64,000 nucleotides of DNA, taken from NCBI GenBank assembly GCA_964416505.1, contig CAYQEJ010000003.1, positions 54,034 to 118,033 of the forward strand, in the 5' to 3' direction. Below, one piece after another: positions 28,054-60,379 of the stretch (position 1 is its first letter; each line of letters opens with the position of its first letter). The notes under the pieces were generated by a model. The model did not search any database and was not told where the DNA came from. It was given only the letters and a program-made list of their open reading frames with translations. A program made the position numbers and the translations under genes. This DNA is from an uncultured Gammaproteobacteria bacterium (GTDB lineage Bacteria > Patescibacteriota > Microgenomatia > Levybacterales > UBA12049).

Positions 28054-28055
28054 AT

Positions 28056-29999
28056 TTACTTATTTTGGTCAAAATCAGAGAAGCCAGGTGCAATTTGCGG
28101 CGTCTGCGGAGGAACAAAACCTGATTGATTCATGGGACTAATGGGCGCTGGGTTTTGGTAGGGTGCTGAAAAAGAAGTCTCATTCATTATTCTTTGCTCC
28201 TCCTGTCTTCTTAAAAGTTCTTCTGGATTTGAAGTAATAATCTTGTGTTCAAACGGAGCAGATATCACTTTCATGGAAACATGACTTTGTCCTGCAAAAA
28301 ATAAACCCTCTCCGACGTTTGCTGATAAAAGTAGTTGTTTTTCCTGCTGTGTTAAATAGAAAATTTGAGACACTAAATCTATCTCAGTAGGGCTTTGTTT
28401 TAAAAGCATCTGAATGGACGAGTTTGAAAGAATTGCCTTTCCATAATCGGTGGAGAGAAAGTCCTGAACATCCTGGGTAGCTGTTGTTAGTGCAAGATAA
28501 TATTTCCTAGCTCTTTTAGCTATTCCATGGATGAAAGAGGCAGAGTCTTGGTATTTCATAAGGTACCAGGCCTCATCAAGCACTAATAGTCTTTTTTTAA
28601 GATCTTTTCTAACTCTCGTCCAAATGAAATCAAGAATTATATGCATAGCCACGGGGCGAAGCTGATCTTCGAGTCCTCTAGTTGAAAATGCAGTGAATGG
28701 ATTTTTTATATCAAAGTTTGATTGTTGGTTAAAAATTCCAGCCATGCTTCCTTTTATAAATTTCTCAAGCCTTAGTGCTAGGTTTTTAGAAATTTCATCC
28801 TCGTTTCCCAAGAGAACTTTATATAGATCTTCCATGAGAGGAGGCTTCTTTGTTTGTGTAGATGGGTCTGGTGTAATTCCTTTTTGCCTGTAAACTTCTA
28901 CTAATGCTCGATCAAGAATTGCGTCATGCGCTGCATCAAGTTCTCCCATAACGATTCTAAGAAGAGCATGGAGCGAAAGGATTTTTAATCCTAATTCATT
29001 TTCTCCTTGTTCATAGATACCAGATAAGTCGAATGGATTAATCTTGATAGGAGAGGCGGGGGTGAACTCAATATATTCTCCGCCGAGGGTTCTCGTGAGT
29101 TCCCCATATTCTCCTTCAGGATCAATTACTATGATTTCAGCGCCAAACATAAACTGTCGCATAAGCTCCAGCTTGATAAGGTAAGATTTTCCTGCTCCAG
29201 ATTTTCCGAAAACCACTTCGTTTGCATTTTCTAGAGAGTATCTGTCAAAAATGATTAATGAATCATTTAGCTTATTTAGTCCATACATTACTCCTTTATC
29301 TTGGGTGAGAGTGGCAGATGTAAACGGAAACGTTGAAGCGAGGGAAGTGGTGTCCATGTTTCTGGTCAAGAATAATTGATCGTCTGCAATTGGAATGCTT
29401 GATTTAAAACCAGCATCCATTTGAAGGGTTGCGGGTTTAGCTAGGACAAGAATTGAAGCCAGAAGTGTTTTGAGTCTTTTTGATGCCTCTTCAAGGTCCT
29501 CTTTTGTATCAGATATTAATGTAATGTAAAGGCTAAATTGAAAAAATCTTTCTATTCCCTTTGCGAGTTCTTCCTGTACCGAAAGTGCGTCTTCTAGAGA
29601 AGCTTGGACGGTAGGATCTAAGACTTTATTATTCTGTGTTTGTTCCATAAGGGTTGCTTCCATTTCGCCAATTTTTCTTCTTAGATCTTGGAGGGCATCT
29701 GGTGAAGATGTGGGATAGCAGAACATAGAAAGATTTAGTGAATGTTCAAAATCAATAAGAGGTTCAAGCCAATTAGGTGAAACAAATCTGGGGTATCCCA
29801 CAACGAAAAAAGTTTTGTGATATTTTTCTCCAATTCTAATATGCCCAAAATCAACTTCGATAGAAGAAGGGGCTATGATATCCGTAACAGAATTCATGCC
29901 TCTTTCGATTCTTTTTATTCCCTCATTTGCAGGGTGAATCGCTGCGCCAGGAATAGGATTAGTTTTTAAGCTTTGATCTTTTTTGTTAAATAGTTTCAT
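28056..29999 (-). CDS. VirB4/TrbE/CagE-family type IV secretion ATPase
   Basis: 647 aa, no N-terminal TM. N-terminal CagE_TrbE_VirB-type region (IAPSSIEVDFGHIRIGEKYHKTFFVVGYPRFVSPNWLEPL). Walker A VFGKSGAGKSYL, Walker B LLVLDEAWYLM, and C-terminal LTTATQDVQDF, typical of VirB4. Confidence 0.75.
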   Translation of the reverse strand: MKLFNKKDQSLKTNPIPGAAIHPANEGIKRIERGMNSVTDIIAPSSIEVDFGHIRIGEKYHKTFFVVGYPRFVSPNWLEPLIDFEHSLNLSMFCYPTSSPDALQDLRRKIGEMEATLMEQTQNNKVLDPTVQASLEDALSVQEELAKGIERFFQFSLYITLISDTKEDLEEASKRLKTLLASILVLAKPATLQMDAGFKSSIPIADDQLFLTRNMDTTSLASTFPFTSATLTQDKGVMYGLNKLNDSLIIFDRYSLENANEVVFGKSGAGKSYLIKLELMRQFMFGAEIIVIDPEGEYGELTRTLGGEYIEFTPASPIKINPFDLSGIYEQGENELGLKILSLHALLRIVMGELDAAHDAILDRALVEVYRQKGITPDPSTQTKKPPLMEDLYKVLLGNEDEISKNLALRLEKFIKGSMAGIFNQQSNFDIKNPFTAFSTRGLEDQLRPVAMHIILDFIWTRVRKDLKKRLLVLDEAWYLMKYQDSASFIHGIAKRARKYYLALTTATQDVQDFLSTDYGKAILSNSSIQMLLKQSPTEIDLVSQIFYLTQQEKQLLLSANVGEGLFFAGQSHVSMKVISAPFEHKIITSNPEELLRRQEEQRIMNETSFSAPYQNPAPISPMNQSGFVPPQTPQIAPGFSDFDQNK

Positions 30000-41337: not shown

Positions 41338-41424
41338 GGAGAGGTCGCATAGTGGACTAGTGCGGCTGTCTTGAAAACAGCTGTGGGTGCAAGCCTACCG
41401 CGAGTTCGAATCTCGCCCTCTCCG
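41338..41424 (+). tRNA. tRNA-Ser (anticodon TGA), class II with a long variable arm
   Basis: GGAGAGG acceptor pairs with CCTCTCC. Anticodon stem-loop GCTGT-cTTGAAaa-ACAGC. 22-nt variable arm, T-arm GAGTTCGAATCTC. 87 nt; CCA not encoded. Confidence 0.85.
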
Positions 41425-41425
41425 C

Positions 41426-43864
41426 TTATCTCTGTCTAGGGTTTGAGTTTATCCCCCCGCTCACTTGACCCGTAGTGCTTCGTATAGAATTTACTAAAAA
41501 TGAAAGTCCAATTGCGCTTAGGAAGTTTGTTAATCCTTCTTTTCTTTTTTTTCTTTTGATGATTTCATGCTCTATTCTATATGCTTCATAAGCCATTTGC
41601 GCTAAGGTAATCTCCTCAGCGTTCCCTTTAGTCACTGTTTCTTCTAGTCTTTTTTTTGCTGCTTTTAATGCTTCATTTGCGTCTGATTCCATTTCTTCAA
41701 GCTCAGTAGAAAATTCTCTATTTCTTGCTTTTGCTCGAATCTCTGCGCTTTCAAAGGCTTTTTTGTATGCCTCATCGCGCTTTTTAATTGCGTTTGCTAA
41801 TTCTTCATCGGTCATTTTTCTTGGTTTACCATCTCTTTGGGCAGCTTGTTCCAGGAAAATTTCCATATTTAATCTTAATAAAGCTTCTTTTACTTCAGCT
41901 TCTGCTAATCTCCTTTCCAATATCTTTCTGTCCTCAACGCTTAAGGCTCCTTTCATTTCAGCAATTCTTAGTTCTTCCCGTGCTTCATCTACGAGCGTAA
42001 ATACTTTTCTTTCGGGTGCCGCTTGATTATGTTCATCATCGGTATCTGGGAGTTGTTCATCTGTTTCTAATATTTCTTCAGCTTCATCTCTAGGATCAAT
42101 TATTTGATCCACTGGTTGAGATGATGGCTCCATGGCTGTCTCGGTGGCTCCTTCAAGACCTTGTGCAGCTGAAATCATATCGCTAAGTCCCTGATTTGCT
42201 TCAGATGCTTTTATGAATTTTACATTTGGGAATGCCTCTTGAAGTCTTGGAATGGCATCATAATAAGCCTCGTGTACGATTACTCCAGCTATTCCGCCAT
42301 CTTTTAAAGATTGGCCTGGTTTTCCTAGTACAATAAAGCTTCCGTTATCTTTAACGCTTATTGCTGCAGCATTTGGTTTTGAATCAAGATTGGCTGTAAA
42401 GAAACTGGCTTCTTGATCTATGCCATTTGTTAGAAGGTTATTAAGACTTACTAAATCCTGCGTGGTTCCCTTTGCAATCCCATGTGCATCAAATTGAGAA
42501 GCGAGTTCAGGAGGGATTGATCTTCTGGTATCAACTAGCATATAAGGGTCATATGGGAATTCTTCGCCATCAACTAATTCATTTGGATGTTCTTCGATGA
42601 ATCTCTGTGCTTTTCCTGCCATTGCTTGAACTTCATCGGAAGACAATCCAGTTCGATTCGCTTCTGCTGTAGTGGGTGCTGGAACAGATTCTGGCGCTGT
42701 AGCTGAAGTTGCATCTCTTTTTGCTTTTCTTGCGATTGCTTCAGAGAGGCCATGATGTCCTTTTTCGGCATATGCTTTGGATTTTTCAGGATACCGCGCT
42801 AGATATGCATCCCATCCATTCATTTCTTCAATATCTCGTGCAGCTTGAGCTTTCTCTCTCCTACTTGAAGGATCAGCGCTTTGAACTTCAGGGTGTGCAT
42901 TTGCTTTTTCTATAATTTGTGCTTGAAACCTGGTAAGTTCTGGATCTAAATCTGGGTGGTCATAGATATGATCTGGTCCGATGGTTTCCAATCTTGGTGG
43001 ACCAGCGGTAAATCCTTCGGGGAGATTTACGTTTCCTGCTGATTGTGGGGATGTCTCTGGCAAATTTGATGGGTTTATCATTTCCCCGAGACCTTCTGTC
43101 ATTTGATCTGCTCTAATAAATTTTACTCCTGGGTATGCTTCTTGAAGCCTTGGAATAGCATCGTAAAAAGCTTCATTTACTAAAACTGCTGCTATTTCAC
43201 CTCTGGGGTTTTCTGGCGTTTCAATCTTGCCGTCGGGTTTACTAAGGATGATAAAATTTCCCGTATCATATGCTAGGCCACCCATTGCAGATGCAACTTG
43301 AGCTTCAATTTCTGGTGGAACTTTTAATGGTACAGTATGGAAATCACGAGCCTGGTCAATACCGGTAGTTAAAAAAGTATTTAAAGCCGCAAGTTGGTCT
43401 TTGTATCCTCCCTTTGCAATTCCATGCGCATCAAATCTTTGACCTATCTCAACAGGAAGTTGACCTCTCACTCCTACCATGAGATCATCTTGTTCATATT
43501 TAATTTCCTGAATAAATCCAGTTGATTCTGGTATTGGATGATCTCTTATGAAAACAGCAGCATTAGTTCCTAATTCTTGTATTTCTTGGGGGGAAAGGCC
43601 AGTTCTTGTTACTTCCTGACTTGTTAAGCCTGCTGCGTCAGCTAAGCCTGCGTCTATTCTTGGCGGATTTGCTGTTAGATCTGCTTCAATCGCTCCCGCC
43701 AATGCTGTGTTAGCTGCAACCTGCGCAGCATCTGGTGCTTTGGGTGCAGTGGGAGCAGCAGGTGCCCTTACTGCTTCTGCTGGCCGTGGTGCTCCATCTG
43801 GCATTCCTGGTGTTGTAGTCATACGTTCTATCATAAGTCTAGATTTATAAGCTAAGTTTGTCAA
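41426..43864 (-). CDS. Large hypothetical protein (812 aa) with an internal tandem duplication of an approximately 330-aa module, a C-terminal coiled coil and a C-terminal TM anchor
   Basis: Repeated blocks: QFDAHGIAKGGYKDQLAALNTFLTTGIDQ / QFDAHGIAKGTTQDLVSLNNLLTNGIDQ, and FYDAIPRLQEAYPGVKFIRADQMTEGLGEMI / YYDAIPRLQEAFPNVKFIKASEANQGLSDMI. GC-richer than surrounding genes. The stop is 2 nt from the tRNA-Ser 3' end. Confidence 0.55.
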   Translation of the reverse strand: MTNLAYKSRLMIERMTTTPGMPDGAPRPAEAVRAPAAPTAPKAPDAAQVAANTALAGAIEADLTANPPRIDAGLADAAGLTSQEVTRTGLSPQEIQELGTNAAVFIRDHPIPESTGFIQEIKYEQDDLMVGVRGQLPVEIGQRFDAHGIAKGGYKDQLAALNTFLTTGIDQARDFHTVPLKVPPEIEAQVASAMGGLAYDTGNFIILSKPDGKIETPENPRGEIAAVLVNEAFYDAIPRLQEAYPGVKFIRADQMTEGLGEMINPSNLPETSPQSAGNVNLPEGFTAGPPRLETIGPDHIYDHPDLDPELTRFQAQIIEKANAHPEVQSADPSSRREKAQAARDIEEMNGWDAYLARYPEKSKAYAEKGHHGLSEAIARKAKRDATSATAPESVPAPTTAEANRTGLSSDEVQAMAGKAQRFIEEHPNELVDGEEFPYDPYMLVDTRRSIPPELASQFDAHGIAKGTTQDLVSLNNLLTNGIDQEASFFTANLDSKPNAAAISVKDNGSFIVLGKPGQSLKDGGIAGVIVHEAYYDAIPRLQEAFPNVKFIKASEANQGLSDMISAAQGLEGATETAMEPSSQPVDQIIDPRDEAEEILETDEQLPDTDDEHNQAAPERKVFTLVDEAREELRIAEMKGALSVEDRKILERRLAEAEVKEALLRLNMEIFLEQAAQRDGKPRKMTDEELANAIKKRDEAYKKAFESAEIRAKARNREFSTELEEMESDANEALKAAKKRLEETVTKGNAEEITLAQMAYEAYRIEHEIIKRKKRKEGLTNFLSAIGLSFLVNSIRSTTGQVSGGINSNPRQR

Positions 43865-43943
43865 TTTTGCTTATAAACTAAGCGCATTATAGATTTGAGA
43901 CAGAAAACAAGCTTGATATTTACCTTATAAGAAATTTATAAAT

Positions 43944-44285
43944 TTATGCTTGAGGTGGAGCAGTGAGCGTCTTTGCGGTAGAAATTGCTTGTTCAATTTG
44001 TCCCTGCTTTATAAAATCTCTCATTGAGTTTAGGGTTTGATCTCTCTTTTCATCAGTTACTTTTTCCAGTTCTTCAAGATATACTTCATTTGCTTCTTTA
44101 TATTTTTCTCCCAAGCCTTTGAGCTTGGTTAGTAAATCTGCCTGATCTTTAATTGGAAGAGCTGCTAGAAAGTCACGAGCAAGTTGCTGTGCTTCTGGAG
44201 CATTAATTTTATTTTGCTTTAAATGTTCAACGATTAACTCTAATAGTTCTTTTTTAACTTTTTCAATTTCTTCTACCAAATTCAT
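43944..44285 (-). CDS. Small coiled-coil hypothetical protein
   Basis: 113 aa, highly charged helical protein, no family recognised. Confidence 0.45.
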   Translation of the reverse strand: MNLVEEIEKVKKELLELIVEHLKQNKINAPEAQQLARDFLAALPIKDQADLLTKLKGLGEKYKEANEVYLEELEKVTDEKRDQTLNSMRDFIKQGQIEQAISTAKTLTAPPQA

Positions 44286-44403
44286 TACTTCATGTTATCT
44301 CTTTTTTGCTAAAAATTAAATGGTTAGAGTTGACGAAGGATATGGGTTGAGTTACAGTATAGGTATGGATTCTGCCCCAGATGATCAAAGAATAAGTAAT
44401 ACA

Positions 44404-44910
44404 ATGCCTCAAATTCATGATCATAGCGTGAGAACTCTTCTCTCATGGTCAGCTCCTGGAAGGCCTTTTAAAACTCGTGGAAAGCAGTTTTATATGACCG
44501 CTCTTCTTATAGCTTTTTTAATTGAAATACTTTTGTTTTTGTTTCATCAATATATGCTTATGTTTGTTGTAGCTTCTCTTGTGTTTGTTTCGTTTGCTTT
44601 TGCTTATGTACCTCCAAAGAATTTCCATTACAAAATTTCAACTGAAGGATTTATGCTTGAAGACAGATTTTATATTTGGCACGAATTGTATGATTTCTTT
44701 TTTACTAGAAGAAACGGAATAGAAATTTTGAACATAAGAACAAAAAGTATTTATCCAGGAATACTTACTGTAACGCTTGGTGATATCACAAGGGAGCATG
44801 CAAAAGATGTTTTAGTGAGATATCTTCCTTTTAGGGAGTATATAAAACCAACCTTCATGGAAAAATCAGCTGACTGGTTATCCAAAAATTTTCCTCTTGA
44901 GAAAAATTAA
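44404..44910 (+). CDS. Hypothetical membrane protein (2-3 TM)
   Basis: The track ORF starts at 44320, only 34 bp from the divergent upstream gene. The internal ATG 44404 (MPQIHDHS...) is a more plausible start. The hydrophobic core is LLIAFLIEILLFLF...MLMFVVASLVFVSFAFAYV. Confidence 0.4.
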   Translation: MPQIHDHSVRTLLSWSAPGRPFKTRGKQFYMTALLIAFLIEILLFLFHQYMLMFVVASLVFVSFAFAYVPPKNFHYKISTEGFMLEDRFYIWHELYDFFFTRRNGIEILNIRTKSIYPGILTVTLGDITREHAKDVLVRYLPFREYIKPTFMEKSADWLSKNFPLEKN

Positions 44911-44912
44911 AA

Positions 44913-45002
44913 TGGCGGAGAGTGGGAGATTCGAACTCCCGGTCGCCTTACGACGACATCCGCTTTCCAAGCGAACGCACTAGGCCACTATGCGAACTCT
45001 CC
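44913..45002 (-). tRNA. tRNA-Ser (anticodon GGA), CCA encoded
   Basis: The reverse complement GGAGAGTTCGCATAGTGGCCTAGTGCG-TTCGC-tTGGAaa-GCGGA-long variable arm-CCGGGAGTTCGAATCTCCC-ACTCTCC-G-CCA folds as a class II tRNA. Confidence 0.85.
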
Positions 45003-45005
45003 GTG

Positions 45006-45431
45006 CTATATAATTAATTTCCTTGCTTCTTCCCAAGCTTCCTTTTCTGAATCATAAGTCAATTTTTTAGAAACATCATTATAATCTATCCACAAAACAT
45101 CTTCCATTTCATTATCGTGATTGTTAGTGTCTCCGCCTTTAAATTTCATCACAAAATAATAGACGGTTTTTTTTATTTTCTCACCATTCCAAACGTAGAA
45201 ATATGATGTTGGTTTTATTTCTTTTTCAATTTCTCCAATTATCCCTGTTTCTTCTTCAACTTCGCGAAGTGCTGTTTCTTCTTTCGTTTGATGTTTATTT
45301 TCTTCCTTATCTCCAATAAGTCCTTTGGGAAAAACCCATCCATGATGTTGTGAATGCTGAGCGATAAGAATTAGAGTTCTATCTCCATCTTTTTTATAAA
45401 CTATTCCTCCAGCGCTAAATTCAAGTGTCAT
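45006..45431 (-). CDS. NUDIX hydrolase
   Basis: Nudix box GLIGDKEENKHQTKEETALREVEEETGI (GX5EX7REVXEEXGU). Confidence 0.8.
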   Translation of the reverse strand: MTLEFSAGGIVYKKDGDRTLILIAQHSQHHGWVFPKGLIGDKEENKHQTKEETALREVEEETGIIGEIEKEIKPTSYFYVWNGEKIKKTVYYFVMKFKGGDTNNHDNEMEDVLWIDYNDVSKKLTYDSEKEAWEEARKLII

Positions 45432-45474
45432 AATATTAAGTGTTTACACAGAAAACTTCCTAGAAATTATTTTG

Positions 45475-45559
45475 CGGAGGGTACAGGATTCGAACCTGTG
45501 TAGGACTTGCGCCCTCGAGTTTTCGAAACTCGTGCAATTGGCCACTATGCGAACCCTCC
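45475..45559 (-). tRNA. tRNA-Ser (anticodon CGA)
   Basis: The reverse complement GGAGGGT...CGAGT-tTCGAaa-ACTCG...GGTTCGAATCC...ACCCTCC-G has a long variable arm. 85 nt. Confidence 0.8.
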
Positions 45560-45564
45560 TTATG

Positions 45565-45638
45565 CACCCTCGAATGGATTCGAACCATCGACCTTAGCGT
45601 CCGCAACGCTACGCTCTATCCAGCTGAGCTACGAGGGC
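45565..45638 (-). tRNA. tRNA-Arg, anticodon read as GCG (G34 instead of the usual A34/I34)
   Basis: The reverse complement GCCCTCG-TA-GCTCAGCTGGATAGAGC-G-TAGCG-tTGCGGa-CGCTA-AGGTC-GATGGTTCGAATCCATT-CGAGGGT-G. The D-arm GTAGCTCAGCTGGATAGAG is characteristic of tRNA-Arg. Acceptor has G1-U72. Confidence 0.65.
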
Positions 45639-45692
45639 TTGCTCTCTTAGGGCATATGCGTATTTTAGTTCATTATATGAGGCCAATCAAGC

Positions 45693-46670
45693 TTAGAGGT
45701 GTATGCATTTAACAAAAGGGATATAAAATGTTTTTGTTAATATTTTAATTGATCTAAACATCATGCTGCAGCTAATTTTTGGAGTCTGAATAATAATTTT
45801 GGGAGTAGGTGTGGGTGGTATTGGGGTTATGCTTGGGATCATGGAGGGAATAGGGGATAGAGTGGGTATTGAAGTGGGTAAATTTGTAGGGCTAGGAGCA
45901 TTCGTAGGTGATAATGACGGAATTGGGCTTAATATTTGAGTGGGAGAAGGTGCGGAAGATGGTGTTGGTGATTGAGAAACGCTTGGAGTTAAAGTAGAAG
46001 TAGGCGTATCTGTTGGAAGAGTCTCAGGACTAGATAAGTTGTTTTGAGCTTGCGGAATAGATCTTACTATGAAATCTAATGCGTTATTATTCGTGTCTTC
46101 AGAGTTTCCTGTCAATTCATCCACTCCACCACTACTCATGGAAATTGCAGTGGAAAAGCTCTTAGCTTTTCTTTCTATGCTTGTATTTGCGTCAGGAGCC
46201 GTGAGAGCTGTGCCTTCCCCAAGGGGATTATCTGGTGTACCGAGTGTTACGGAATCAATAAGAGCCCCTGTATTTACTGGTTCACTTCTTAAACCAATAC
46301 TATTGTTGTTTGAAATTGTATCCGAAGAAGTTTTATCGCATGTCAGCGTAGCATTAAGAGCTGTATTACACCATAGATAATACCCATGAGCTTTTATCGT
46401 ATCGGATGCGTTAAATACTATTATGTCTGTGTCAGTAGCGCCGCTGCTAGATCTTTTTACTAGTCTTATATCGCCTAAATTTATGTCCGAAGAGGTTGGG
46501 TTATAAAGCTCTACGAAGTCATCATTTGATGTAGCTCCTGCAATTTGAATTTCTGAAATCACAACATTAGTCGCAGGCGCTGCTGATGCGTTTTGAGAAA
46601 AATTAAAAATAACTGCTAGAAAAAGAAGCGTTAGTGAGGATCCCATAAACGTTTGGACAATACGTTTCAT
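45693..46670 (-). CDS. Secreted lamin-tail-domain (LTD) protein with a P/S/T-rich C-terminal linker
   Basis: Signal peptide ...FSQNASA|APA. ATNVVISEIQIAGATSNDDFVELYNPTSSDINLGDIRLVKRSSSG...HGYYLW matches the LTD consensus (V.I.E......NEFVEL.N.....V.L.GW.L). This is followed by about 120 aa of SPTP repeats. Confidence 0.55.
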   Translation of the reverse strand: MKRIVQTFMGSSLTLLFLAVIFNFSQNASAAPATNVVISEIQIAGATSNDDFVELYNPTSSDINLGDIRLVKRSSSGATDTDIIVFNASDTIKAHGYYLWCNTALNATLTCDKTSSDTISNNNSIGLRSEPVNTGALIDSVTLGTPDNPLGEGTALTAPDANTSIERKAKSFSTAISMSSGGVDELTGNSEDTNNNALDFIVRSIPQAQNNLSSPETLPTDTPTSTLTPSVSQSPTPSSAPSPTQILSPIPSLSPTNAPSPTNLPTSIPTLSPIPSMIPSITPIPPTPTPKIIIQTPKISCSMMFRSIKILTKTFYIPFVKCIHL

Positions 46671-46749
46671 GGCTATAGTTTAGGTATAGTATTATACGGA
46701 AGCTATGTCAATATGAGTAAATATATCGAAAACACTCAATATTCTGGGG

Positions 46750-46839
46750 CGGAGGAGATGAGATTCGAACTCATGCGAGACTTATTCAGCCTCAGGGGGT
46801 TAGCAACCCCCCGCAATGGACCAACTATGCGACTCCTCC
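46750..46839 (-). tRNA. tRNA-Ser (anticodon GCT)
   Basis: The reverse complement GGAGGAGTCGCATAGTTGGTCCATTGC-GGGGG-tTGCTAa-CCCCC-long variable arm-GCATGAGTTCGAATCTCAT-CTCCTCC-G. 90 nt. Confidence 0.8.
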
Positions 46840-47461: not shown

Positions 47462-48157
47462 ATGAGAATTCTCGATCTTATTTTCCCAAAATATTGTGTA
47501 AATTGCAAAAAATATGGCGATTTTCTATGTGTTAACTGCTTTTCCAGGTTATCATTTGATACGAAAAATATTTGTCTTTTGTGCGGAAAGCCTTCTTATG
47601 ATGGATTAACTCATCCAATTTGTTATAGAAAAAACGGAATAGAAGGATCTTTTACTGGAATAGTATTCAATTCGATTTCTAGAAAACTTATTTATCAGTT
47701 TAAGTACAAACCTTTTTTATCAGGATTAGGTGCATTCTTGGGAGAATTATTATATGAGTCATTAATTCAAAATGAAGAATTTGAGAGGGTGATTGAAAAA
47801 TATGATGTTATCTTAGTTCCAGTTCCCCTGAGTGTTAATAAACTTCGGAAAAGAGGATATAATCAGGCTGGAGTTTTAGCAAAAGAACTTGGAAAGAAAT
47901 TAAGCATGCCGGTTTTAGATTGTTTGCTAAGGGTAAAAGATACAAAGACTCAGGTAGGACTTAGTAAAAAAGAAAGACAGGAGAATATTAAGGACGCTTT
48001 TCAAGTTAGAGATAAAATGGTTGAGAAGGTTAAAAATAAAAACATACTTATAATCGATGATGTTTTAACAACTGGCGCTACTTTTTCTGAAATAACTAGG
48101 ATTTTGAAGGATGCAAAAGTGAATAAAGTCTGGGGTGTCGCTCTTGCCAGGGAGTAA
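47462..48157 (+). CDS. comF: ComF-family (ComFC-like) phosphoribosyltransferase-domain protein
   Basis: N-terminal 4-Cys zinc finger (CVNCKKYGDFLCVNC...CLLCGKPS...HPIC) and C-terminal PRTase motif ILIIDDVLTTGATFSEI. Start moved to ATG 47462 to avoid a divergent overlap with the phosphatase gene. Confidence 0.75.
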   Translation: MRILDLIFPKYCVNCKKYGDFLCVNCFSRLSFDTKNICLLCGKPSYDGLTHPICYRKNGIEGSFTGIVFNSISRKLIYQFKYKPFLSGLGAFLGELLYESLIQNEEFERVIEKYDVILVPVPLSVNKLRKRGYNQAGVLAKELGKKLSMPVLDCLLRVKDTKTQVGLSKKERQENIKDAFQVRDKMVEKVKNKNILIIDDVLTTGATFSEITRILKDAKVNKVWGVALARE

Positions 48158-49016
48158 CTTCTTCTCCCTTTGCTCTTCTTCTCTCGGTTAGAAATTGAGG
48201 ATTATATCTCATGAAATCTGGCATGTGACGAACTGCTTTTTTGATGTCTTCAGCGCGTCTTCTCGAAGCTTTTCTTTCTCCAGGGGTGATTTTTAACCCA
48301 TATTGTCTCATTAGTTCTGGGTGTAGCATATCGAGCGCCTGAAGTCGCATAAAATCTTTAATTGCTTTTGGGACAGATGCATATTCAAGCAAAATATATG
48401 GCATTAAGCTCATCGCAGCGCCACCTACAGCAAGCCGTCCGTCGAAAATCATTGTTTCTAAGTGAGTTTGGATTCCGTCATATGTTTGAGGCAATGTTTC
48501 TGGTTTTAAACCCATTGGGCTAAAAACTCCTGTAATTGCGTCTTTGGCGTATTCATCTTTTTCAGGATCTGATAAAGGGCCAACAAATCTTTGATATCCT
48601 TCAACTGAGCCGACGATTAATGTACCCGCAACTACTCCTTGGCTTTCTTGAGTCATAGGAGAGTAGGGTTGACCTTCTCGATGTGCGCCAGTTGTTGTAA
48701 CCAGTCTTCGTCTAAAATCTGGGTTCGCATGAGCTTTGTTAATGCGCGTTATTGCTTCTTCCGCTTCTGCATTAGTTCCATGAATAATGTCAAATCCAAG
48801 TGTTGCATTTAGTCTTAATCTTCCGAGCGTGTTTCTTTGAATCTCGCCTGTATAAACTAAGAGTTCAGCAACTCTTGGATCAGCTGCCTGAGTTAGTAGG
48901 GCACCTTGTCCACTAAGTATCGGAGTAGCCTCGCTAGCTACTCTTATTAATGCGCCATTTGGATTAAATCTTAAATTATTTGGACCAGAATCTGGTCCAT
49001 ACTCAACGTTTGGCAT
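48096..49016 (-). CDS. Hypothetical protein with atypical (GC- and Arg-rich) composition
   Basis: Continuous ORF. Start set at ATG 49016 (MPNVEYGP...) because the 23 upstream in-frame codons are the tmRNA terminator hairpin. GC is markedly higher than the window average. The 3' end overlaps the comF 3' end by about 60 nt. No confident family; a possible MpaB/DUF2236-like oxygenase is only a guess. Confidence 0.45.
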   Translation of the reverse strand: MPNVEYGPDSGPNNLRFNPNGALIRVASEATPILSGQGALLTQAADPRVAELLVYTGEIQRNTLGRLRLNATLGFDIIHGTNAEAEEAITRINKAHANPDFRRRLVTTTGAHREGQPYSPMTQESQGVVAGTLIVGSVEGYQRFVGPLSDPEKDEYAKDAITGVFSPMGLKPETLPQTYDGIQTHLETMIFDGRLAVGGAAMSLMPYILLEYASVPKAIKDFMRLQALDMLHPELMRQYGLKITPGERKASRRRAEDIKKAVRHMPDFMRYNPQFLTERRRAKGEEVTPWQERHPRLYSLLHPSKS

Positions 49017-49026
49017 ATGTATAAAA

Positions 49027-49052
49027 AAACCCGCACGTGGCGGGTTTTTTAG
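49027..49052 (-). terminator. Rho-independent terminator of ssrA (perfect palindromic hairpin flanked by A and T runs, potentially bidirectional)
   Basis: AAAAAAACCCGCCACGTGCGGGTTTTTTT on the minus strand: 9-bp GC-rich stem, 4-nt loop, U-tract, immediately after the tmRNA 3' acceptor. Confidence 0.7.
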
Positions 49053-49059
49053 TGTGGAG

Positions 49060-49451
49060 ATGTCGGAGAGTGACTCCGAGTGCAAGAAATGTAATTTAGA
49101 AATATCTACAAGCTTAGTTTCGTATTATTTTGATCACTCTATTCTTTGAAACGAAACATTCATAAATAGAGCCGAGGTTATAAATACAATAAAGATCTAA
49201 CCGATTTCTTTACAGTTTTCTTGGCTGATTTAATGCCCAAAATGTCTCACCAAGAGAAGACAAAATGAACAGCTCAAAAGCTTAAGCGTATGCTAAAGCT
49301 GGTTGAGCGCTAGGTGAGAATAATCTCGCCATAGCGTTAAATGCATTTCTAGCATTTAATTTTTGATCAAATTTTACGTCTTTTAATCGTGGACGGCTTG
49401 CAATTATTAAAGTACTTATCTTGTCGATGCAATGCATCCCCAAGGATGAAA
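49060..49451 (-). ncRNA. ssrA: tmRNA (ssrA), approximately 390 nt, directly downstream of smpB
   Basis: 5' end GGGGATGCATTGCATCGACAAG... pairs with 3' ...CATCTCC-A to give a 7-bp acceptor stem with a G3:U70 wobble (the alanine identity element). T-arm-like CGGAG-tcactct-CTCCG. The internal tag reading frame ends ...NAFNAMARLFSPSAQPALAYA-TAA (a degron-like ALAYA end). The terminator hairpin follows. Confidence 0.7.
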
Positions 49452-49481
49452 TAATACCAAATTTAGCTTCAGAAGTCAAGT

Positions 49482-49934
49482 TTAGGAGGCTAATTCTTGT
49501 TCAATGTCACGTTCTAAATCTGCTCTTTTTTTGGCTTCTTTTTTATCATATTTTTTCTTACCACGTCCTATTCCAACCTCAAGTTTTATAAGTCCGTGTT
49601 TTTCATAAAAGGAGATTGGAACTAATGCCAGGCTAGCTCCATCAGTTTTGTGTTTAAGGCTAATTATTTCCTTTTTGTGCAAAAGAAGTTTTCGAGTTCT
49701 TGTTTCGCTATATCCTTCGGGTCTGGCATATTCATATGGAAAAATTTTAGCATTCACGAGGTATGCCTCAGAGCCTATTATTCTTACGTATGCGCCTGAT
49801 AGATCTGCATGTTCTAATTTTATAGCCTTAACTTCAGCTCCATTGAGATTTATTCCAGCCTCAAATCTTTCAGAGATCAAATAATCATAGAAGGCACGTT
49901 TGTTGGTTATTTTCATGAGGTAATAATACGTCAA
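49482..49934 (-). CDS. smpB: SsrA-binding protein SmpB
   Basis: 150 aa with ...LLLHKKEIISLKHKTDGASLALVPISFYEKHGLIKLEVGIGRGKKKYDKKE and a basic C-terminal tail. Canonical SmpB. Confidence 0.9.
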   Translation of the reverse strand: MTYYYLMKITNKRAFYDYLISERFEAGINLNGAEVKAIKLEHADLSGAYVRIIGSEAYLVNAKIFPYEYARPEGYSETRTRKLLLHKKEIISLKHKTDGASLALVPISFYEKHGLIKLEVGIGRGKKKYDKKEAKKRADLERDIEQELAS

Positions 49935-55120: not shown

Positions 55121-55740
55121 TGATAATTCCTACAATCCTCGAGAAGAACTGGGAAGAGATAGAAAAAAAGTTTGAGATTTATAAGAATTTTGCTAAAGTA
55201 GTCCATATAGATTTTTTGGATGGAAAATTTGAAGAGAATACTACTTTTTTAGACCCAAGTCCATTTTTAAAATACTCAAAATATTTTGATTTAGAAGCAC
55301 ACTTAATGGTAGATGAGCCAATTAATTATGTTGAAAAACTTTCAAATGCAGGTTTTAAAACTTTTCTGGGTCATATTGAAAAGATGAATGATCAAATAGA
55401 ATTTGTTTCTAAATCTCAACAATTGGGCGAGGTGGGTCTTGCTCTTGATATTGATACGCAAGTTTCGGAAATTAAAGTTTCTCTTGAGGATCTTGACAGG
55501 ATTCTTCTAATGGGAGTGCATTTAGGAGCATCCGGAAGGCCTTTTGATGAAAGAGTAATTGATAAAGTTAAAGAATTACGAGGAAAAGCATTTACGGATA
55601 TTGAAGTCGATGGAGGAGTAAATAATGAAACATTGCCAGTTCTAAGACAAAGTGGTGCTAGTATGTTTTGCGTGAACAGTTTTTTATTTAAAGGGGATCC
55701 TAAAAAGCAGTTCAGATTACTTGAGTCGATTAGAGGTTAG
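55120..55740 (+). CDS. rpe: Ribulose-phosphate 3-epimerase family protein
   Basis: MIIPTILEKNWEE...VHIDFLDGKF...HLMV...IEVDGGVN parallels Rpe MKIAPSILSADF...HVDVMDGHF...HLMI...IEVDGGIN. Start overlaps the previous stop. Confidence 0.65.
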   Translation: MIIPTILEKNWEEIEKKFEIYKNFAKVVHIDFLDGKFEENTTFLDPSPFLKYSKYFDLEAHLMVDEPINYVEKLSNAGFKTFLGHIEKMNDQIEFVSKSQQLGEVGLALDIDTQVSEIKVSLEDLDRILLMGVHLGASGRPFDERVIDKVKELRGKAFTDIEVDGGVNNETLPVLRQSGASMFCVNSFLFKGDPKKQFRLLESIRG

Positions 55741-58111
55741 CAGGTTTTTGTTCGTTTAGGCTAATAGGTTTGCATCCGCCATTATTCTCAGTTCCTTTAA
55801 TAAAGTATTCATTTCTTCCTCCGCATGATTTAGAAACTATATTAGAAGGTTTTGGATAAATTTCATCTTTGGGATTTTTATTATTTAGTAAATTACTCAT
55901 AATTTTATTCCATATGGGTGCCGCACCAGTTATCCCTGATGCCAGAATTGGATTCATAGGGCTATTGTCATTGTTTCCCACCCATACTGCTGTAAGAATA
56001 TTTGGTGTGTATCCTATTGTCCAGTTATCTCTTTTATTATCAGTCGTTCCAGTCTTAACGGAAACAGTATGTTTGGGAATATTAAGAGGTGAATTAAGGC
56101 CGAACTCCAAGGCTCTTGCTCTGTTATCTGAGAGAATATTTGAAATAATAAAGGCGACTTCTTCAGGCATAGCTCTTTTTTCTTTAATATCTTTCTTTTC
56201 TTCTAACACAGCGCCTTGGTAGTTTGTAATTTTTAATATTGGATTAAGATCCACTTTCTTACCTTCATTCGCCAAGGTTCCGTACACTGTGGCCATATCG
56301 GTCATTTTGGCTTCAGCTGCTCCGAGGGTTACAGCAAGTCCATAATTTGCTGGATCTTCCCATGTGGTTACTCCCATTTTTTTTGCTAAGTTAACCATGG
56401 TTCCGATTCCAACTTTATTTAATGTTTTAACAGCTGGAATATTTATTGAATTTCCTAATGCATTTCTTAAGGTAACGTTTCCATGAAATCTTCCATCGTA
56501 ATTGACCGGAGAGTAGGGAGGAGAGCCTTGGGAGGCAAATGATACGGGTGTGTCCTGGATTGTTGTTGCTGAAGTATAGCCATTCATTAATGCCGCAGAA
56601 TAAGTAATAACTTTTACAGTAGAACCAGGTTGTCTCAAGGCTGTTGTGACATTATAATTTCCACCCTTTGGGTCGAAATAATCTTTTCCGCCAACCATGG
56701 CTAATATATCTCCGTTTTTAGGATTTGTTATAAGAGCACCAGCGTTTGTGAAATTTAGATAACTAGCTTTTTCTACTTCATTTGTAATAATTTGCTGAGC
56801 CATATCTTGAGTTTTTATATCCAGGCTTGTAATAACAGTGAGTCCACCTCTTTCTACAATAGGAAGTCCATATCTTTGGATAAGTAAATCTTTAACATAC
56901 ATTACAAAATGAGGAGCTTTTATATTGTTTTGATTTGGTTTAAATTCTAAATTCTTTTTTTCAGCAGTATTTGCTTGTTCTTTTGAAATAAATCCAAGAT
57001 CAACCATTCTAGCCAAAACTTCTTTCTGCCTCCCTTTCCATAAGTCGGGCGTTTGGCTGTATGGAGAATAAACAGAAGGAGCTTGAGGAAGACCTGCTAA
57101 GAAAGCGCTTTCAGATAGGTCTAAATCTTTAACACTTTTGCCAAAATAGGTTTGAGATGCTGCTTCAGCGCCCCATGCAGTTCCTCCGTATGGAACCTGA
57201 TTGAAGTACATTTCCAAAATCTCATCTTTAGAATATATTCTTTCCGCCCAGGTCGAAAGAATAATTTCCTTTACCTTTCTTTCTATTGTCCTGTCTGGAG
57301 ATAGAAGTCTAGCTTTTACGAGTTGTTGGGTAATCGTAGAGCCTCCTTGTAGAGGTTTTCCGGATATATCCGCAAATGCGGATCTAATAATTGCTAAAAC
57401 ATCGAATCCTGGAGTAGTATAAAAATTTTTATCTTCGATTGCGATTGTGGCATTTTTTAAATTTACAGGAATTTGAGATAAAGACACATTGGTTCTATTC
57501 TGGTTAGCATAAATTTGATAAAGCAAAACCTTATTTCTGTCGTATATTTTAGTTGTTTGGGGAATTTCTTGTTCTGCTAGACCAGCAGGATTTGGAAGAC
57601 TTTTTATAAACATGAAAGAAATGATAGGAAGAAAAACGAATAAAAATGAAAATGCTGTTCCAATAAATACATATTTAAATTTTGTTAAAAAAGGAAGTCG
57701 GGTAGAGAGCTTTGGTCTTCCTCTCTTGGCGTGATGTTTTTTAATATGTGGAAGACTGGGTTTTAAAATTGAAATTTTTGGTAAAGCAATGCCTGAAATT
57801 TTAATTTTTGGAATTTCTGGGACTTTGGAATTAAACAATTTTGGAAATTTTTCCGGAAACTCTACGTTAGGTAAAGCTGGAAAAGAAGCTCTAAAAAATT
57901 TGGGAAAATTGATATCTAAATTAAAATGTTTTTTAGTTACTTTTTTTAATTCTTTTTCAGTTTCAGAATTAAATATTTCCTTTATATTAGAAAATTTTAT
58001 TTCTACTTTTTTAAATAGTTTATAAGGAAAAAGAATGACGAAGAGAGTGATATCGCCAATTAGAATTAAGATTTTCGCAACAAATACAATTAATAAAACT
58101 ATAAATCCCAT
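55730..58111 (-). CDS. Class A penicillin-binding protein (bifunctional GT51 transglycosylase / transpeptidase), with an unusual 150-aa N-terminal repetitive extension
   Basis: GT51 motifs IEDKNFYTTPGFD, GGSTITQQLVK, RKVKE. Transpeptidase SxxK (GSTVK), SxN and SVKTGTT. The N-terminal extension has FPK/LPK periodic repeats before the TM anchor. Confidence 0.85.
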   Translation of the reverse strand: MGFIVLLIVFVAKILILIGDITLFVILFPYKLFKKVEIKFSNIKEIFNSETEKELKKVTKKHFNLDINFPKFFRASFPALPNVEFPEKFPKLFNSKVPEIPKIKISGIALPKISILKPSLPHIKKHHAKRGRPKLSTRLPFLTKFKYVFIGTAFSFLFVFLPIISFMFIKSLPNPAGLAEQEIPQTTKIYDRNKVLLYQIYANQNRTNVSLSQIPVNLKNATIAIEDKNFYTTPGFDVLAIIRSAFADISGKPLQGGSTITQQLVKARLLSPDRTIERKVKEIILSTWAERIYSKDEILEMYFNQVPYGGTAWGAEAASQTYFGKSVKDLDLSESAFLAGLPQAPSVYSPYSQTPDLWKGRQKEVLARMVDLGFISKEQANTAEKKNLEFKPNQNNIKAPHFVMYVKDLLIQRYGLPIVERGGLTVITSLDIKTQDMAQQIITNEVEKASYLNFTNAGALITNPKNGDILAMVGGKDYFDPKGGNYNVTTALRQPGSTVKVITYSAALMNGYTSATTIQDTPVSFASQGSPPYSPVNYDGRFHGNVTLRNALGNSINIPAVKTLNKVGIGTMVNLAKKMGVTTWEDPANYGLAVTLGAAEAKMTDMATVYGTLANEGKKVDLNPILKITNYQGAVLEEKKDIKEKRAMPEEVAFIISNILSDNRARALEFGLNSPLNIPKHTVSVKTGTTDNKRDNWTIGYTPNILTAVWVGNNDNSPMNPILASGITGAAPIWNKIMSNLLNNKNPKDEIYPKPSNIVSKSCGGRNEYFIKGTENNGGCKPISLNEQKPANL

Positions 58112-58210
58112 AAATTTTAATGAGCAGAAATAAATACAAAATTAGCCTCGTTTGATAAGCGAGTCTAGGCTGGATTATACAAAACTTATTTCTTACTTAA
58201 AAGAGGTACT

Positions 58211-60379
58211 TTATGGATTTGGAGTTGGAGATGGAGAGAGCTCAGGATGAGCACAGTCTACGCAGTACCTATCTCCGGTATCATCAGTTATTACATAATG
58301 TTCTTTTAGTTCCAAATTATCAGTCTGTTTTGGATCTTTAGGAATATCTTGGGTGCCTTTGTCAACGTAAACATTCTGCTTACCAGGATCTCTTCTTTTT
58401 GGAAATTTATTCCTAATAAAGTAGTCAGATCTTGTTTCGCACGAGCTTCCTTCAGTTGGGAAAAGCCCAGAATATCGACAAACGTTCATTTTTATTGCAT
58501 CTTTCGGTGGTCTAAGGGGAGTTGTTTTTTTATCTTTTAATAAAAATTCCATAATTTCATGCCAGATGGGGGAGGCGCCTGTTACCCCTGATACTACAGC
58601 TCCCATAGGAGTATTATCATTATTTCCTACCCATGTTGTTACTACGTACTCCGGAGTATATCCAATTGTCCAATTGTCGCGGTAATCATTTGTAGTTCCT
58701 GTTTTTACAGAAACATATTGTCCGGGAAGATTAAGGACTGAATTAGTTCCAAATGCTAAAGCCCTAGCTCCGTTATCAGCTAAAATGTCAGAAATTATAA
58801 AAGTTACGCTTTCAGGGAGTACTCGTTTTCCAAAAATCATAGATTCGTTTTTCTTTTTTTCCAAAATTTTACCTCTATTGTCGGTTACTTCTAAGATTGG
58901 ATTTAAGTCTACGCGATATCCTTTGTTTGCAAAAACACCAAATGATGTTGTCATGTCTAACATGGTTACTTCTCCTCCTCCTAAGGTAAGCGATAAGCCG
59001 TATCTTTGGGGGTCTGTAAATGTATTAATTCCCATTGCTGATGCAGTTGCCATCATTACTTCAACTGTATTAAGCTTTAGCATTTTTACAGCAGGAATAT
59101 TTAAAGAAGACGCTAAGGATTCTCTCATAGTTACAGCGCCATGGAATTTCCCATCATAATTTTTGGGACAATATGCGGCACCTGCAGATTGAGGAAAACA
59201 AATTTCTTTATCTACAAATACTGTAGCTGCAGAGTAACCATTCAGAAGTCCAACAGCATAATTAATAGGCTTGATGGATGATCCTGGCTGTCTTAATGCG
59301 AGAGCTATGTTAACGTTTCCATCAATTGAGGAATCAAAATAATCTTTGCTTCCTACCATGGCTAATATATCTCCGTTTGCAGGATTTGTGACGACCGCCG
59401 CTCCATTTGAAACTCTCGCGAATCTTAGTTTTCCAACTTCAGTTGCTACAGCTAGTTCTGCAAATTCTTGGATGCTAGAATCTAGAGTAGTTTTTACTTT
59501 GAATCCTCCTTCATCTGTAAACTTTTTTCCATATTTTTTTTCCATCAAATCTTTTATATATAGTACAAAGTGGGGTGCGAGGATATTGTTGGATACGTTT
59601 TTATAAACTAGCTTTTCTTTTTTAGCATTTTCCTCTTCTTTTTGGCTTATATATCCTTGTTCTCTCATTTGGGAAAGAACAAGTTCTTGTCTTTCTTTTG
59701 CATACTCTGGGTGAGATCCAAATGGGGAGTAAAGAGTAGGGCTTTGGGGAAGACCTGCTAAGAGCGCAGCCTCAGCTAGTGTAAGGTCTTTTGCACTTTT
59801 GCCAAAAAAAGTTTTAGCTGCAGCTTCGATTCCATATGCGGTTCCTCCATATGGAATTTGGTTAAGGTACATTTCTAAAATCTGTGATTTGGAATAGAGA
59901 ATTTCTGTAATGAATGCTAGTACAACTTCTTTAACTTTTCTTTTTACGGATCTTTCGGGGGTTAAAAGGCTACTTTTGATAAGTTGTTGAGTTAAAGTTG
60001 AGCCTCCTTGTATAGGTTTTCCTGAGATATTTGAAACAAGAGCTCTTGTTATTCCTCTGACATCAATTGCGCCGTGTTTGTAAAAATCTTTATCTTCTAT
60101 TGCGATGGTGGCATCCTGTACGTTTTTTGGAATCTCTTTTAGTGGAATTTGAGTTCTATTTTTGTCTGAGTAGACCGTATATAGAAGTTTTCCGTTTCTG
60201 TCGAAAATTTGACTTGATTCTGGAATTGCGGTTGGATTATTAAGTCTAGTAGGGGACGGAAGATCTTTAAGTATATAATAGTAGGATAAAAATCCGACTA
60301 GAACTATCAAAAGCGCAACTAGAATTCCAAAATATCTCTTTTTTCTGAATTTTTTATATTGCTTTTCTATAAGCTGCAT
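58211..60379 (-). CDS. Class A penicillin-binding protein, tandem paralog
   Basis: IEDKDFYKHGAIDVRG, GGSTLTQQLIK, RKVKEVVLA, GSSIK, and SVKTGTTNDYRDNWTIGYTP. Same domain order as the adjacent PBP, but the sequence is clearly diverged. Confidence 0.85.
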   Translation of the reverse strand: MQLIEKQYKKFRKKRYFGILVALLIVLVGFLSYYYILKDLPSPTRLNNPTAIPESSQIFDRNGKLLYTVYSDKNRTQIPLKEIPKNVQDATIAIEDKDFYKHGAIDVRGITRALVSNISGKPIQGGSTLTQQLIKSSLLTPERSVKRKVKEVVLAFITEILYSKSQILEMYLNQIPYGGTAYGIEAAAKTFFGKSAKDLTLAEAALLAGLPQSPTLYSPFGSHPEYAKERQELVLSQMREQGYISQKEEENAKKEKLVYKNVSNNILAPHFVLYIKDLMEKKYGKKFTDEGGFKVKTTLDSSIQEFAELAVATEVGKLRFARVSNGAAVVTNPANGDILAMVGSKDYFDSSIDGNVNIALALRQPGSSIKPINYAVGLLNGYSAATVFVDKEICFPQSAGAAYCPKNYDGKFHGAVTMRESLASSLNIPAVKMLKLNTVEVMMATASAMGINTFTDPQRYGLSLTLGGGEVTMLDMTTSFGVFANKGYRVDLNPILEVTDNRGKILEKKKNESMIFGKRVLPESVTFIISDILADNGARALAFGTNSVLNLPGQYVSVKTGTTNDYRDNWTIGYTPEYVVTTWVGNNDNTPMGAVVSGVTGASPIWHEIMEFLLKDKKTTPLRPPKDAIKMNVCRYSGLFPTEGSSCETRSDYFIRNKFPKRRDPGKQNVYVDKGTQDIPKDPKQTDNLELKEHYVITDDTGDRYCVDCAHPELSPSPTPNP

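Follow-up and report, generated by a model that had tools for sequence, protein, structure and literature searches.

In a 64,000-nucleotide stretch of contig CAYQEJ010000003.1 (assembly GCA_964416505.1, positions 54,034 to 118,033; the whole stretch is called the window here), a 65-codon open reading frame (ORF) lies on the minus strand at 49282-49479, next to the gene smpB. Does this locus encode a small protein, or does it specify a transfer-messenger RNA (tmRNA), as a first reading of the letters (the original prediction) had proposed? If it is a tmRNA gene, is it a working one or a decaying copy? From comparisons of sequence and predicted structure, we conclude that the locus is almost certainly a real and functional one-piece tmRNA (ssrA) gene of an uncultured Candidatus Levybacteria bacterium (Patescibacteria/candidate phyla radiation, CPR).

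Family match and fold

The original prediction had named a covariance-model search as a check on the proposed tmRNA, and this search found one. The Rfam covariance model RF00023 matched the minus strand at 49441-49052 with 76.9 bits (E = 4.1e-28; curated gathering score, 47 bits), covering model positions 1-374 of 374 without truncation and extending past the discriminator base, A387, to 49052. The gene is of an already known kind, one that the standard Rfam model detects at its curated threshold; the supplement to PMC11915505 catalogues tmRNAs for 5,252 of the 6,765 genomes of Patescibacteria. The 390-nucleotide RNA has a minimum free energy z-score of -6.8 against shuffled sequences. It is the single tmRNA in the window, whose other RNA genes are five tRNAs only.

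We searched species-representative genomes with SmpB and recovered 80 loci (L001-L080; 52-89% identity); those with informative labels are mostly Candidatus Levybacteria/Levyibacteriota or Patescibacteria metagenome-assembled genomes (MAGs). With the window tmRNA as the nhmmer query, a tmRNA homolog adjoining smpB was found at 71 of these loci, the nearest being that of L006 (CAZMGC010000026.1), which is 94.9% identical. RF00023 matched all 16 of the related loci that were tested, with 88-127 bits.

We next specified the canonical tmRNA fold by hand (104 pairs) and scored it on a MAFFT alignment of 36 sequences, the window and 35 relatives, made without reference to a structure. The gene and its structural elements are as follows, with nucleotide numbers counted from G1 and pseudoknots abbreviated PK:

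49055-49441, minus strand: tmRNA (ssrA) gene, 387 nucleotides from G1 to discriminator A387, identified by RF00023, smpB-side homologs and covariation
49435-49441, minus strand: 5' strand of the acceptor stem, GGGGAUG (nucleotides 1-7), with the G3 of the G3:U70 alanine identity pair; invariant in 36/36
49396-49423, minus strand: 5' strand of helix 2 (nucleotides 19-46), pairing with nucleotides 329-359, with compensatory changes
49365-49395, minus strand: PK1 (nucleotides 47-77), with CGUC/GACG (stem a) and GAUUAAA/UUUGAUC (stem b)
49272-49308, minus strand: helix 5 (nucleotides 134-170), enclosing the end of the tag frame and its stop codon
49219-49271, minus strand: PK2 (nucleotides 171-223), helices 95-98% paired
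49176-49212, minus strand: PK3 (nucleotides 230-266), helices 92-95% paired, with compensatory changes
49117-49172, minus strand: PK4 (nucleotides 270-325), helices 94-96% paired
49083-49113, minus strand: 3' strand of helix 2 (nucleotides 329-359), followed by CAC (nucleotides 360-362), which is GAC in most relatives and in the Rfam consensus
49063-49079, minus strand: T arm (nucleotides 363-379), with stem UCGGA/UCCGA and the 7-nucleotide loop GUCACUC (49074-49068)
49056-49062, minus strand: 3' strand of the acceptor stem, CAUCUCC (nucleotides 380-386), followed by discriminator A387 at 49055

Standard pairs filled 90.1% of 3,691 alignment cells, compared with 39-46% when the 3' partners were slid by 1-3 columns. 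Both sides had changed in 59 of the 104 pairs, and none of 500 column shuffles reached any of the observed covariation measures. The acceptor stem does not vary: all seven of its pairs, G3:U included, are identical across the aligned sequences. The tRNA-Ala-like acceptor of the original prediction, with GGGGAUG paired to CAUCUCC, a G3:U wobble and a discriminator A, is thus confirmed. The 5-bp T stem is 100% paired, and four of its five pairs have changed on both sides.

The pseudoknot stems are 77-100% paired overall, and compensatory changes occur in each. Stem a of PK1 is 100% paired with three of four pairs compensatory, and five of the seven pairs in stem b have changed on both sides. The knot stems of PK2 (UCUUGG/CCAAGA) and PK4 (GUUUCG/CGAAAC) have changed on both sides at every pair (6/6 each). 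Pairing is lower in the helices of helix 5 (64-85%), where the alignment is gappy. The predicted fold is that of the standard four-pseudoknot, one-piece tmRNA, and the RF00023 match and the covarying fold together bear out the tmRNA identity.

Compared with the standard one-piece tmRNA (RF00023, e.g., E. coli SsrA), the window RNA shares the G3:U70 acceptor, the discriminator A, a T arm and the lack of an anticodon arm; a long helix 2, PK1 ahead of the resume codon, PK2 to PK4 and a partner smpB; and an alanine resume codon, a small or hydrophobic tag end and a stop codon in helix 5. It differs in its tag of 23 codons, where 10 is commonest (PMC11915505), and in its tRNA-like domain, which has the T-loop GUCACUC with a possible 54:60 pair, GCAC ahead of the T arm, a single D-loop G and no encoded CCA.

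Tag peptide, transcription and maturation

The tag is read from the following two elements:

49285-49353, minus strand: tag reading frame of 23 codons, encoding ARNAFNAMARLFSPSAQPALAYA, with the resume codon GCU at 49353-49351 (nucleotides 89-91)
49282-49284, minus strand: tag stop codon UAA, within helix 5

The frame ends ...AFNAMARLFSPSAQPALAYA-UAA, and the peptide has a PALAYA C terminus. The resume context, UAAAU directly before GCU, is conserved and could be aligned across 70 sequences (the window and 69 relatives), and all tags were read from that column. U and A at positions -5 and -4 form the E. coli resume context, and the window matches it. Tags in this clade have 11-42 codons (median, 24.5; n = 70); 55 of 70 end in alanine, and the commonest ending is ALAYA. 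The original prediction called the ALAYA-terminated tag unusually long. This holds against bacteria in general, for which the commonest tag length over approximately 97,000 catalogued tmRNAs is 10 amino acids (PMC11915505), but not within the clade, where tags of 23 codons or more make up 49 of 70; the window tag is therefore long in general and normal for its lineage.

Resume codons and tags vary among the relatives in several ways. Next in closeness to the window after L006 and L004 are five loci (L005, L008, L009, L010 and L011) whose resume codon is GUU (Val; tmRNA nucleotides 88-90) and not GCU, and which encode the tag VSKTFNAIGRAFSPSSAQPALAYA; L078 resumes at GUC, and the remaining 64 sequences resume with alanine. 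The longest tags, of 41-42 codons, occur in L057 and L052. Nine loci (L029, L033, L036, L042, L047, L050, L056, L064 and L073) have tags of 30-33 codons with an internal motif near A-L-K-A-E-R-D-A-I-L-A-E-L. This motif is written in differing codons, which suggests conservation at the peptide level beyond the C-terminal degron.

The elements from which transcription of ssrA can be judged are these:

49482-49916, minus strand: smpB coding sequence (144 amino acids from ATG, stop included), Pfam PF01668 SmpB, E = 4.6e-44, residues 3-142
49451-49479, minus strand: candidate sigma-70-type promoter for ssrA, scoring 10/12 plus TG, with positional conservation
49023-49050, minus strand: intrinsic terminator, a perfect 11-bp stem AAAAAACCCGC / GCGGGUUUUUU with a 5-nucleotide loop and a U run

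The Pfam match establishes that smpB lies directly upstream of the tmRNA on the same strand, as originally proposed; the gap from its stop codon to G1 of ssrA is 40 nucleotides (49481-49442) and not the roughly 30 first estimated. Within this gap, the candidate promoter consists of a -35 box TTGACT (49479-49474), a 17-nucleotide spacer and an extended -10 element TGgTATTAT (49459-49451) that ends 9 nucleotides upstream of G1. Taken in the window alone, this match is no better than chance (4 sites in 1.7 kb versus 5.5 expected). We accept the promoter on positional conservation alone and not on the single-window match. Among 70 homologous loci (69 relatives and the window), 45 have a motif matching at least 9/12 with its -10 box 8-12 nucleotides from G1, against a shuffled-flank mean of 0.8 and maximum of 4; the relatedness of the loci inflates the figure of 45. 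In 18 of the 69 relatives, including the close L008, L007, L002 and L003, ssrA is inverted relative to smpB, and the motif is present in all 18. From this conserved position, inverted loci included, we infer a dedicated ssrA promoter.

The original prediction suggested co-transcription of ssrA with smpB, which now appears the weaker reading. On this reading, most of the tmRNA would come from a transcript shared with smpB and would be cut free of the 40-nucleotide spacer by RNase P; we regard this as unlikely, if still deserving of serious thought. The two genes share a strand across a short gap with no terminator between them, some two dozen same-strand relatives at greater distance have no promoter motif before ssrA, and in L028 the ssrA leader and trailer are near-complementary by eye. 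Against these points stand the TTGACT-N17-TGgTATTAT promoter within that very gap, the offset kept across so many loci and its retention in every relative whose ssrA lies on the strand opposite smpB. An ssrA promoter of its own is therefore more likely than obligatory co-transcription, to judge from these motifs. Read-through from smpB is possible and not required; the two routes may operate together, and the distant same-strand relatives that lack the motif may rely on co-transcription.

At the other end of the gene, the terminator had been described as a perfect 9-bp GC hairpin followed by a U tract. The perfect hairpin and the U run stand, but the stem is 11 bp long, with just 5 G-C pairs beside 6 A-U pairs (dG, the folding free energy, -14.2 kcal/mol; z = -4.0; 0 of 200 shuffles as stable). 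A hairpin and T-run lie 3' of the gene in most relatives.

The inversions of ssrA are scattered over close and distant relatives (L002, L003, L007, L008 and 14 other loci). At L008:3420-3960, inverted 11-nucleotide copies of the smpB 3' end (TAGCCTCRTAA) lie on either side of the promoter-ssrA-terminator cassette, which is itself inverted.

The family match, fold, tag frame, adjacent smpB, promoter motif and terminator are observed; how they would work together is suggested by homology with the tmRNA of E. coli and other bacteria. Transcription mainly from the gene's own promoter would give a leader of a few nucleotides, which RNase P would trim to G1, while the 3' trailer would be removed and CCA added enzymatically. 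Alanyl-tRNA synthetase would then charge the RNA via G3:U70, and SmpB and EF-Tu would deliver it to stalled ribosomes. Translation would resume at GCU (nucleotide 89), add alanine and the 23 residues ARNAFNAMARLFSPSAQPALAYA, and stop at the UAA in helix 5, and the hydrophobic ...PALAYA end would mark the product for an ATP-dependent protease. A Pfam scan of 10 large ORFs in the window found no protease (ClpX, ClpP, Lon or FtsH) that might read the tag.

The tRNA-like domain and alternative readings of the locus

Several observations weigh against a functional tmRNA and have to be set beside the evidence above. The window copy has the lowest Rfam score compared with the relatives tested (76.9 versus 88-127 bits), and ARAGORN detected no tmRNA in the window. 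The T-loop GUCACUC lacks the usual U54 and A58 (Rfam consensus, UUCGAuU), and Infernal bypassed it by a local end. Ahead of the T arm, GCAC (49081-49084) replaces the conserved GGAC. CCA is not encoded: A387 is followed by CAC (gene end, ...CUCC-A-CAC). In addition, a single G stands in the D-loop region in place of the consensus GG.

Most of these features recur across the clade. The T-loop has the form N-U-C-A-Y-U-N in all 70 clade sequences, with U55, C56 and A57 invariant, position 54 variable and A58 kept by just two sequences. A 54:60 pair can form in 60 of the 70, through five pair types, where about 39% would be expected if the columns were independent. The tmRNA T-loop has been described as highly conserved (PMC1168896). 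Judging by the aligned loops, that of the window is a variant common to the clade and not a fault of this one copy. Twelve of the 70 clade members carry GCAC (11 relatives besides the window), and 56 have the GGAC of the consensus; by our own mapping, the window C aligns with E. coli G333 of the G-A tandem (PMC1168896). CCA is uncoded in 64 of 70 members and encoded in 6, and it is not always gene encoded in tmRNAs (PMC11915505, Fig. 1 legend); it must therefore be added after transcription here, which does not exclude the gene from the tmRNAs. Because the T-loop, GCAC and uncoded CCA are common to species of the clade whose stems still covary, they argue for lineage traits and against decay.

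L006 has an identical tag, the same promoter and terminator, and the same order of smpB, ssrA, an mpaB-like gene and comF; its T-loop has A54...U60 with GGAC upstream, compared with G54...C60 and GCAC in the window. The tmRNAs of Levybacteria/Microgenomates MAGs more broadly share with the window the T-loop type, a mostly uncoded CCA and long tags. In the literature searched, we found no specific description of T-loop variants or long tags in CPR tmRNAs, nor of the NUCAYUN T-loop or the exchange of GCAC for GGAC.

These shared traits raise the possibility that Levybacteria-type tmRNAs, the window copy among them, form a distinct functional variant with a remodeled tRNA-like elbow, habitually long tags and conserved internal tag segments. 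We consider this rather improbable. The elbow has no U54-A58 pair, a covarying 54:60 pair that leaves a 5-nucleotide UCAYU loop, and a single G in the D region; in this genome, a C also replaces the conserved G of the G-A tandem. The tags are habitually two to four times the usual length, and peptide segments are conserved within them (F-N-A-M-x-R-x-F-S-P-S in the window's group, A-L-K-A-E-R-D-A-I-L-A-E-L in others). Taken together, these features might reflect altered docking on SmpB or the ribosome, or tagged proteins might be handled by another adaptor or protease, as by Lon in mollicutes.

In mollicutes, which lack active ClpXP, a longer tag is read by Lon, and the tag ends in NYAFA (PMC9382460). 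The mollicute (Mycoplasma/Mesoplasma) and window tmRNAs both come from reduced-genome bacteria and have tags much longer than that of E. coli, with aromatic or alanine-rich ends, and several Levybacteria relatives end in ...NYAFA or AYAFA like the mollicute tag. The mollicute and window tags have no sequence relationship, however, and the window's PALAYA is closer to the common ...ALAA type. We regard the clade-wide T-loop, the long tags and the flipping orientation of ssrA as modest leads for tmRNA specialists and not as a new kind of system.

That the window holds a decaying or inactive copy is highly improbable. Such a copy would account for the non-consensus tRNA-like domain: the T-loop GUCACUC in place of UUCGAuU, the C at the second, conserved G of GGAC, the lowest Rfam score in the clade and the ARAGORN miss. 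Yet the T-loop type is present in all 70 clade members and GCAC in 12 species, the stems covary, and the tag frame, stop codon, G3:U pair, promoter and terminator are intact, as is smpB; no other tmRNA was found in the window.

ARAGORN, which the original prediction had expected to define the exact ends and the tag, detects nothing where the covariance model does, and it detects the tmRNA in only 20 of 71 related loci; it placed the tag start in the common resume column in 18 of these 20 calls and wrongly in L054 and L064. In silico, the T-loop of the window RNA was changed to the consensus, its D-loop to GG and its 3' end to one with CCA, and none of these changes restored detection, singly or combined. 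Detection was restored by the 3' 60 nucleotides of L016, L013 or L025, and also by changing GCAC to GGAC together with an L006-type T arm, and with the 3' end swapped or repaired in these ways ARAGORN called the exact tag ARNAFNAMARLFSPSAQPALAYA at nucleotide 89. Because either the 3'-domain swap or the double repair rescues detection, the miss is best read as a threshold effect of several small deviations and not as counter-evidence to a functional tmRNA. Pipelines that depend on ARAGORN would overlook ssrA genes of this CPR group and be prone to annotate the tag frame as a protein.

The ORF at this locus is the following:

49282-49479, minus strand: spurious 65-codon ORF, the tag frame continued in the 5' direction across PK1, helix 2 and the promoter as far as a TTG

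Ahead of the resume codon, the frame stays open in just three sequences: the window, L006 and L004. In L005, L008, L009, L010 and L011, a 1-nucleotide indel just before the resume codon closes it, with a stop 4 codons upstream of that codon, while the downstream tag frame is kept. The idea that 49282-49479 is a real 65-amino-acid protein gene with incidental RNA-like features, for which one could cite only a frame that stays open for 65 codons from TTG and a 51-amino-acid version annotated as a gene on a related public NCBI contig (13,333 bp), is effectively refuted by an upstream frame shut in those five close relatives, a start that falls within the -35 box, the lack of any Pfam match, paired compensatory change upstream of the resume codon as in an RNA, and peptide conservation limited to the portion after it. 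The ORF is the tag frame, open by chance, and not a gene, just as the original prediction had it.

Since the NCBI contig carries the 51-amino-acid version as an annotated gene, the annotation error is real and recurrent, and the main value of the present result lies in correct annotation, with a housekeeping RNA gene replacing a false "hypothetical protein." The database cluster of the 51-amino-acid ORF also holds a 485-amino-acid protein, by eye an unrelated FGGY-type sugar kinase, which is probably a clustering artifact.

Gene neighborhood

The gene order around the locus is conserved as p220, a 639-amino-acid protein, smpB, ssrA, a comF-like gene and a histidine phosphatase gene. An mpaB/Lcp-like gene separates ssrA from comF in just seven loci, those of the window and its six closest relatives, and is thus a lineage-specific insertion next to ssrA. 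In the window, this oxygenase-like gene lies at 48096-49085 on the minus strand (Pfam PF09995, E = 1.4e-25). The TTG at 49085 that begins its longest ORF is inside the tmRNA, and an ATG at 49016 lies 8 nucleotides past the ssrA terminator; the gene start should be placed at the ATG.

Nine relatives (L016, L026, L031, L035, L058, L063, L064, L075 and L080) carry a conserved, apparently structured element of approximately 130 nucleotides 3' of ssrA, for example at L035:3577-3710. It has the form CUUCG-hairpin-CGAAGUGGCnnnGCCACACUU ... GAAGAGUGCCCC ... GAAGUGGGGC-U run, and its motif is absent from the window. We considered RNase P RNA and other known RNAs as its identity and rejected them, as the element had no Rfam match at the gathering score or at E <= 1. 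In L016, L026, L035, L063 and L080, the element is followed by a small ORF that is GIY-YIG nuclease-like by eye.

Farther along the window, large ORFs of 812, 1,237, 534 and 639 amino acids have no Pfam family. A TraG/VirB4-like P-loop ATPase gene (28056-29999) stands beside that of a 755-amino-acid protein without a Pfam match, the pair occupying 25786-29999 on the minus strand. Four tRNA-Ser genes (tga, gga, cga and gct) and a tRNA-Arg gene (gcg) lie at 41338-46839, three of the five within 730 nucleotides (44913-45638), and two class A penicillin-binding proteins are encoded in tandem at 55730-60379 on the minus strand.

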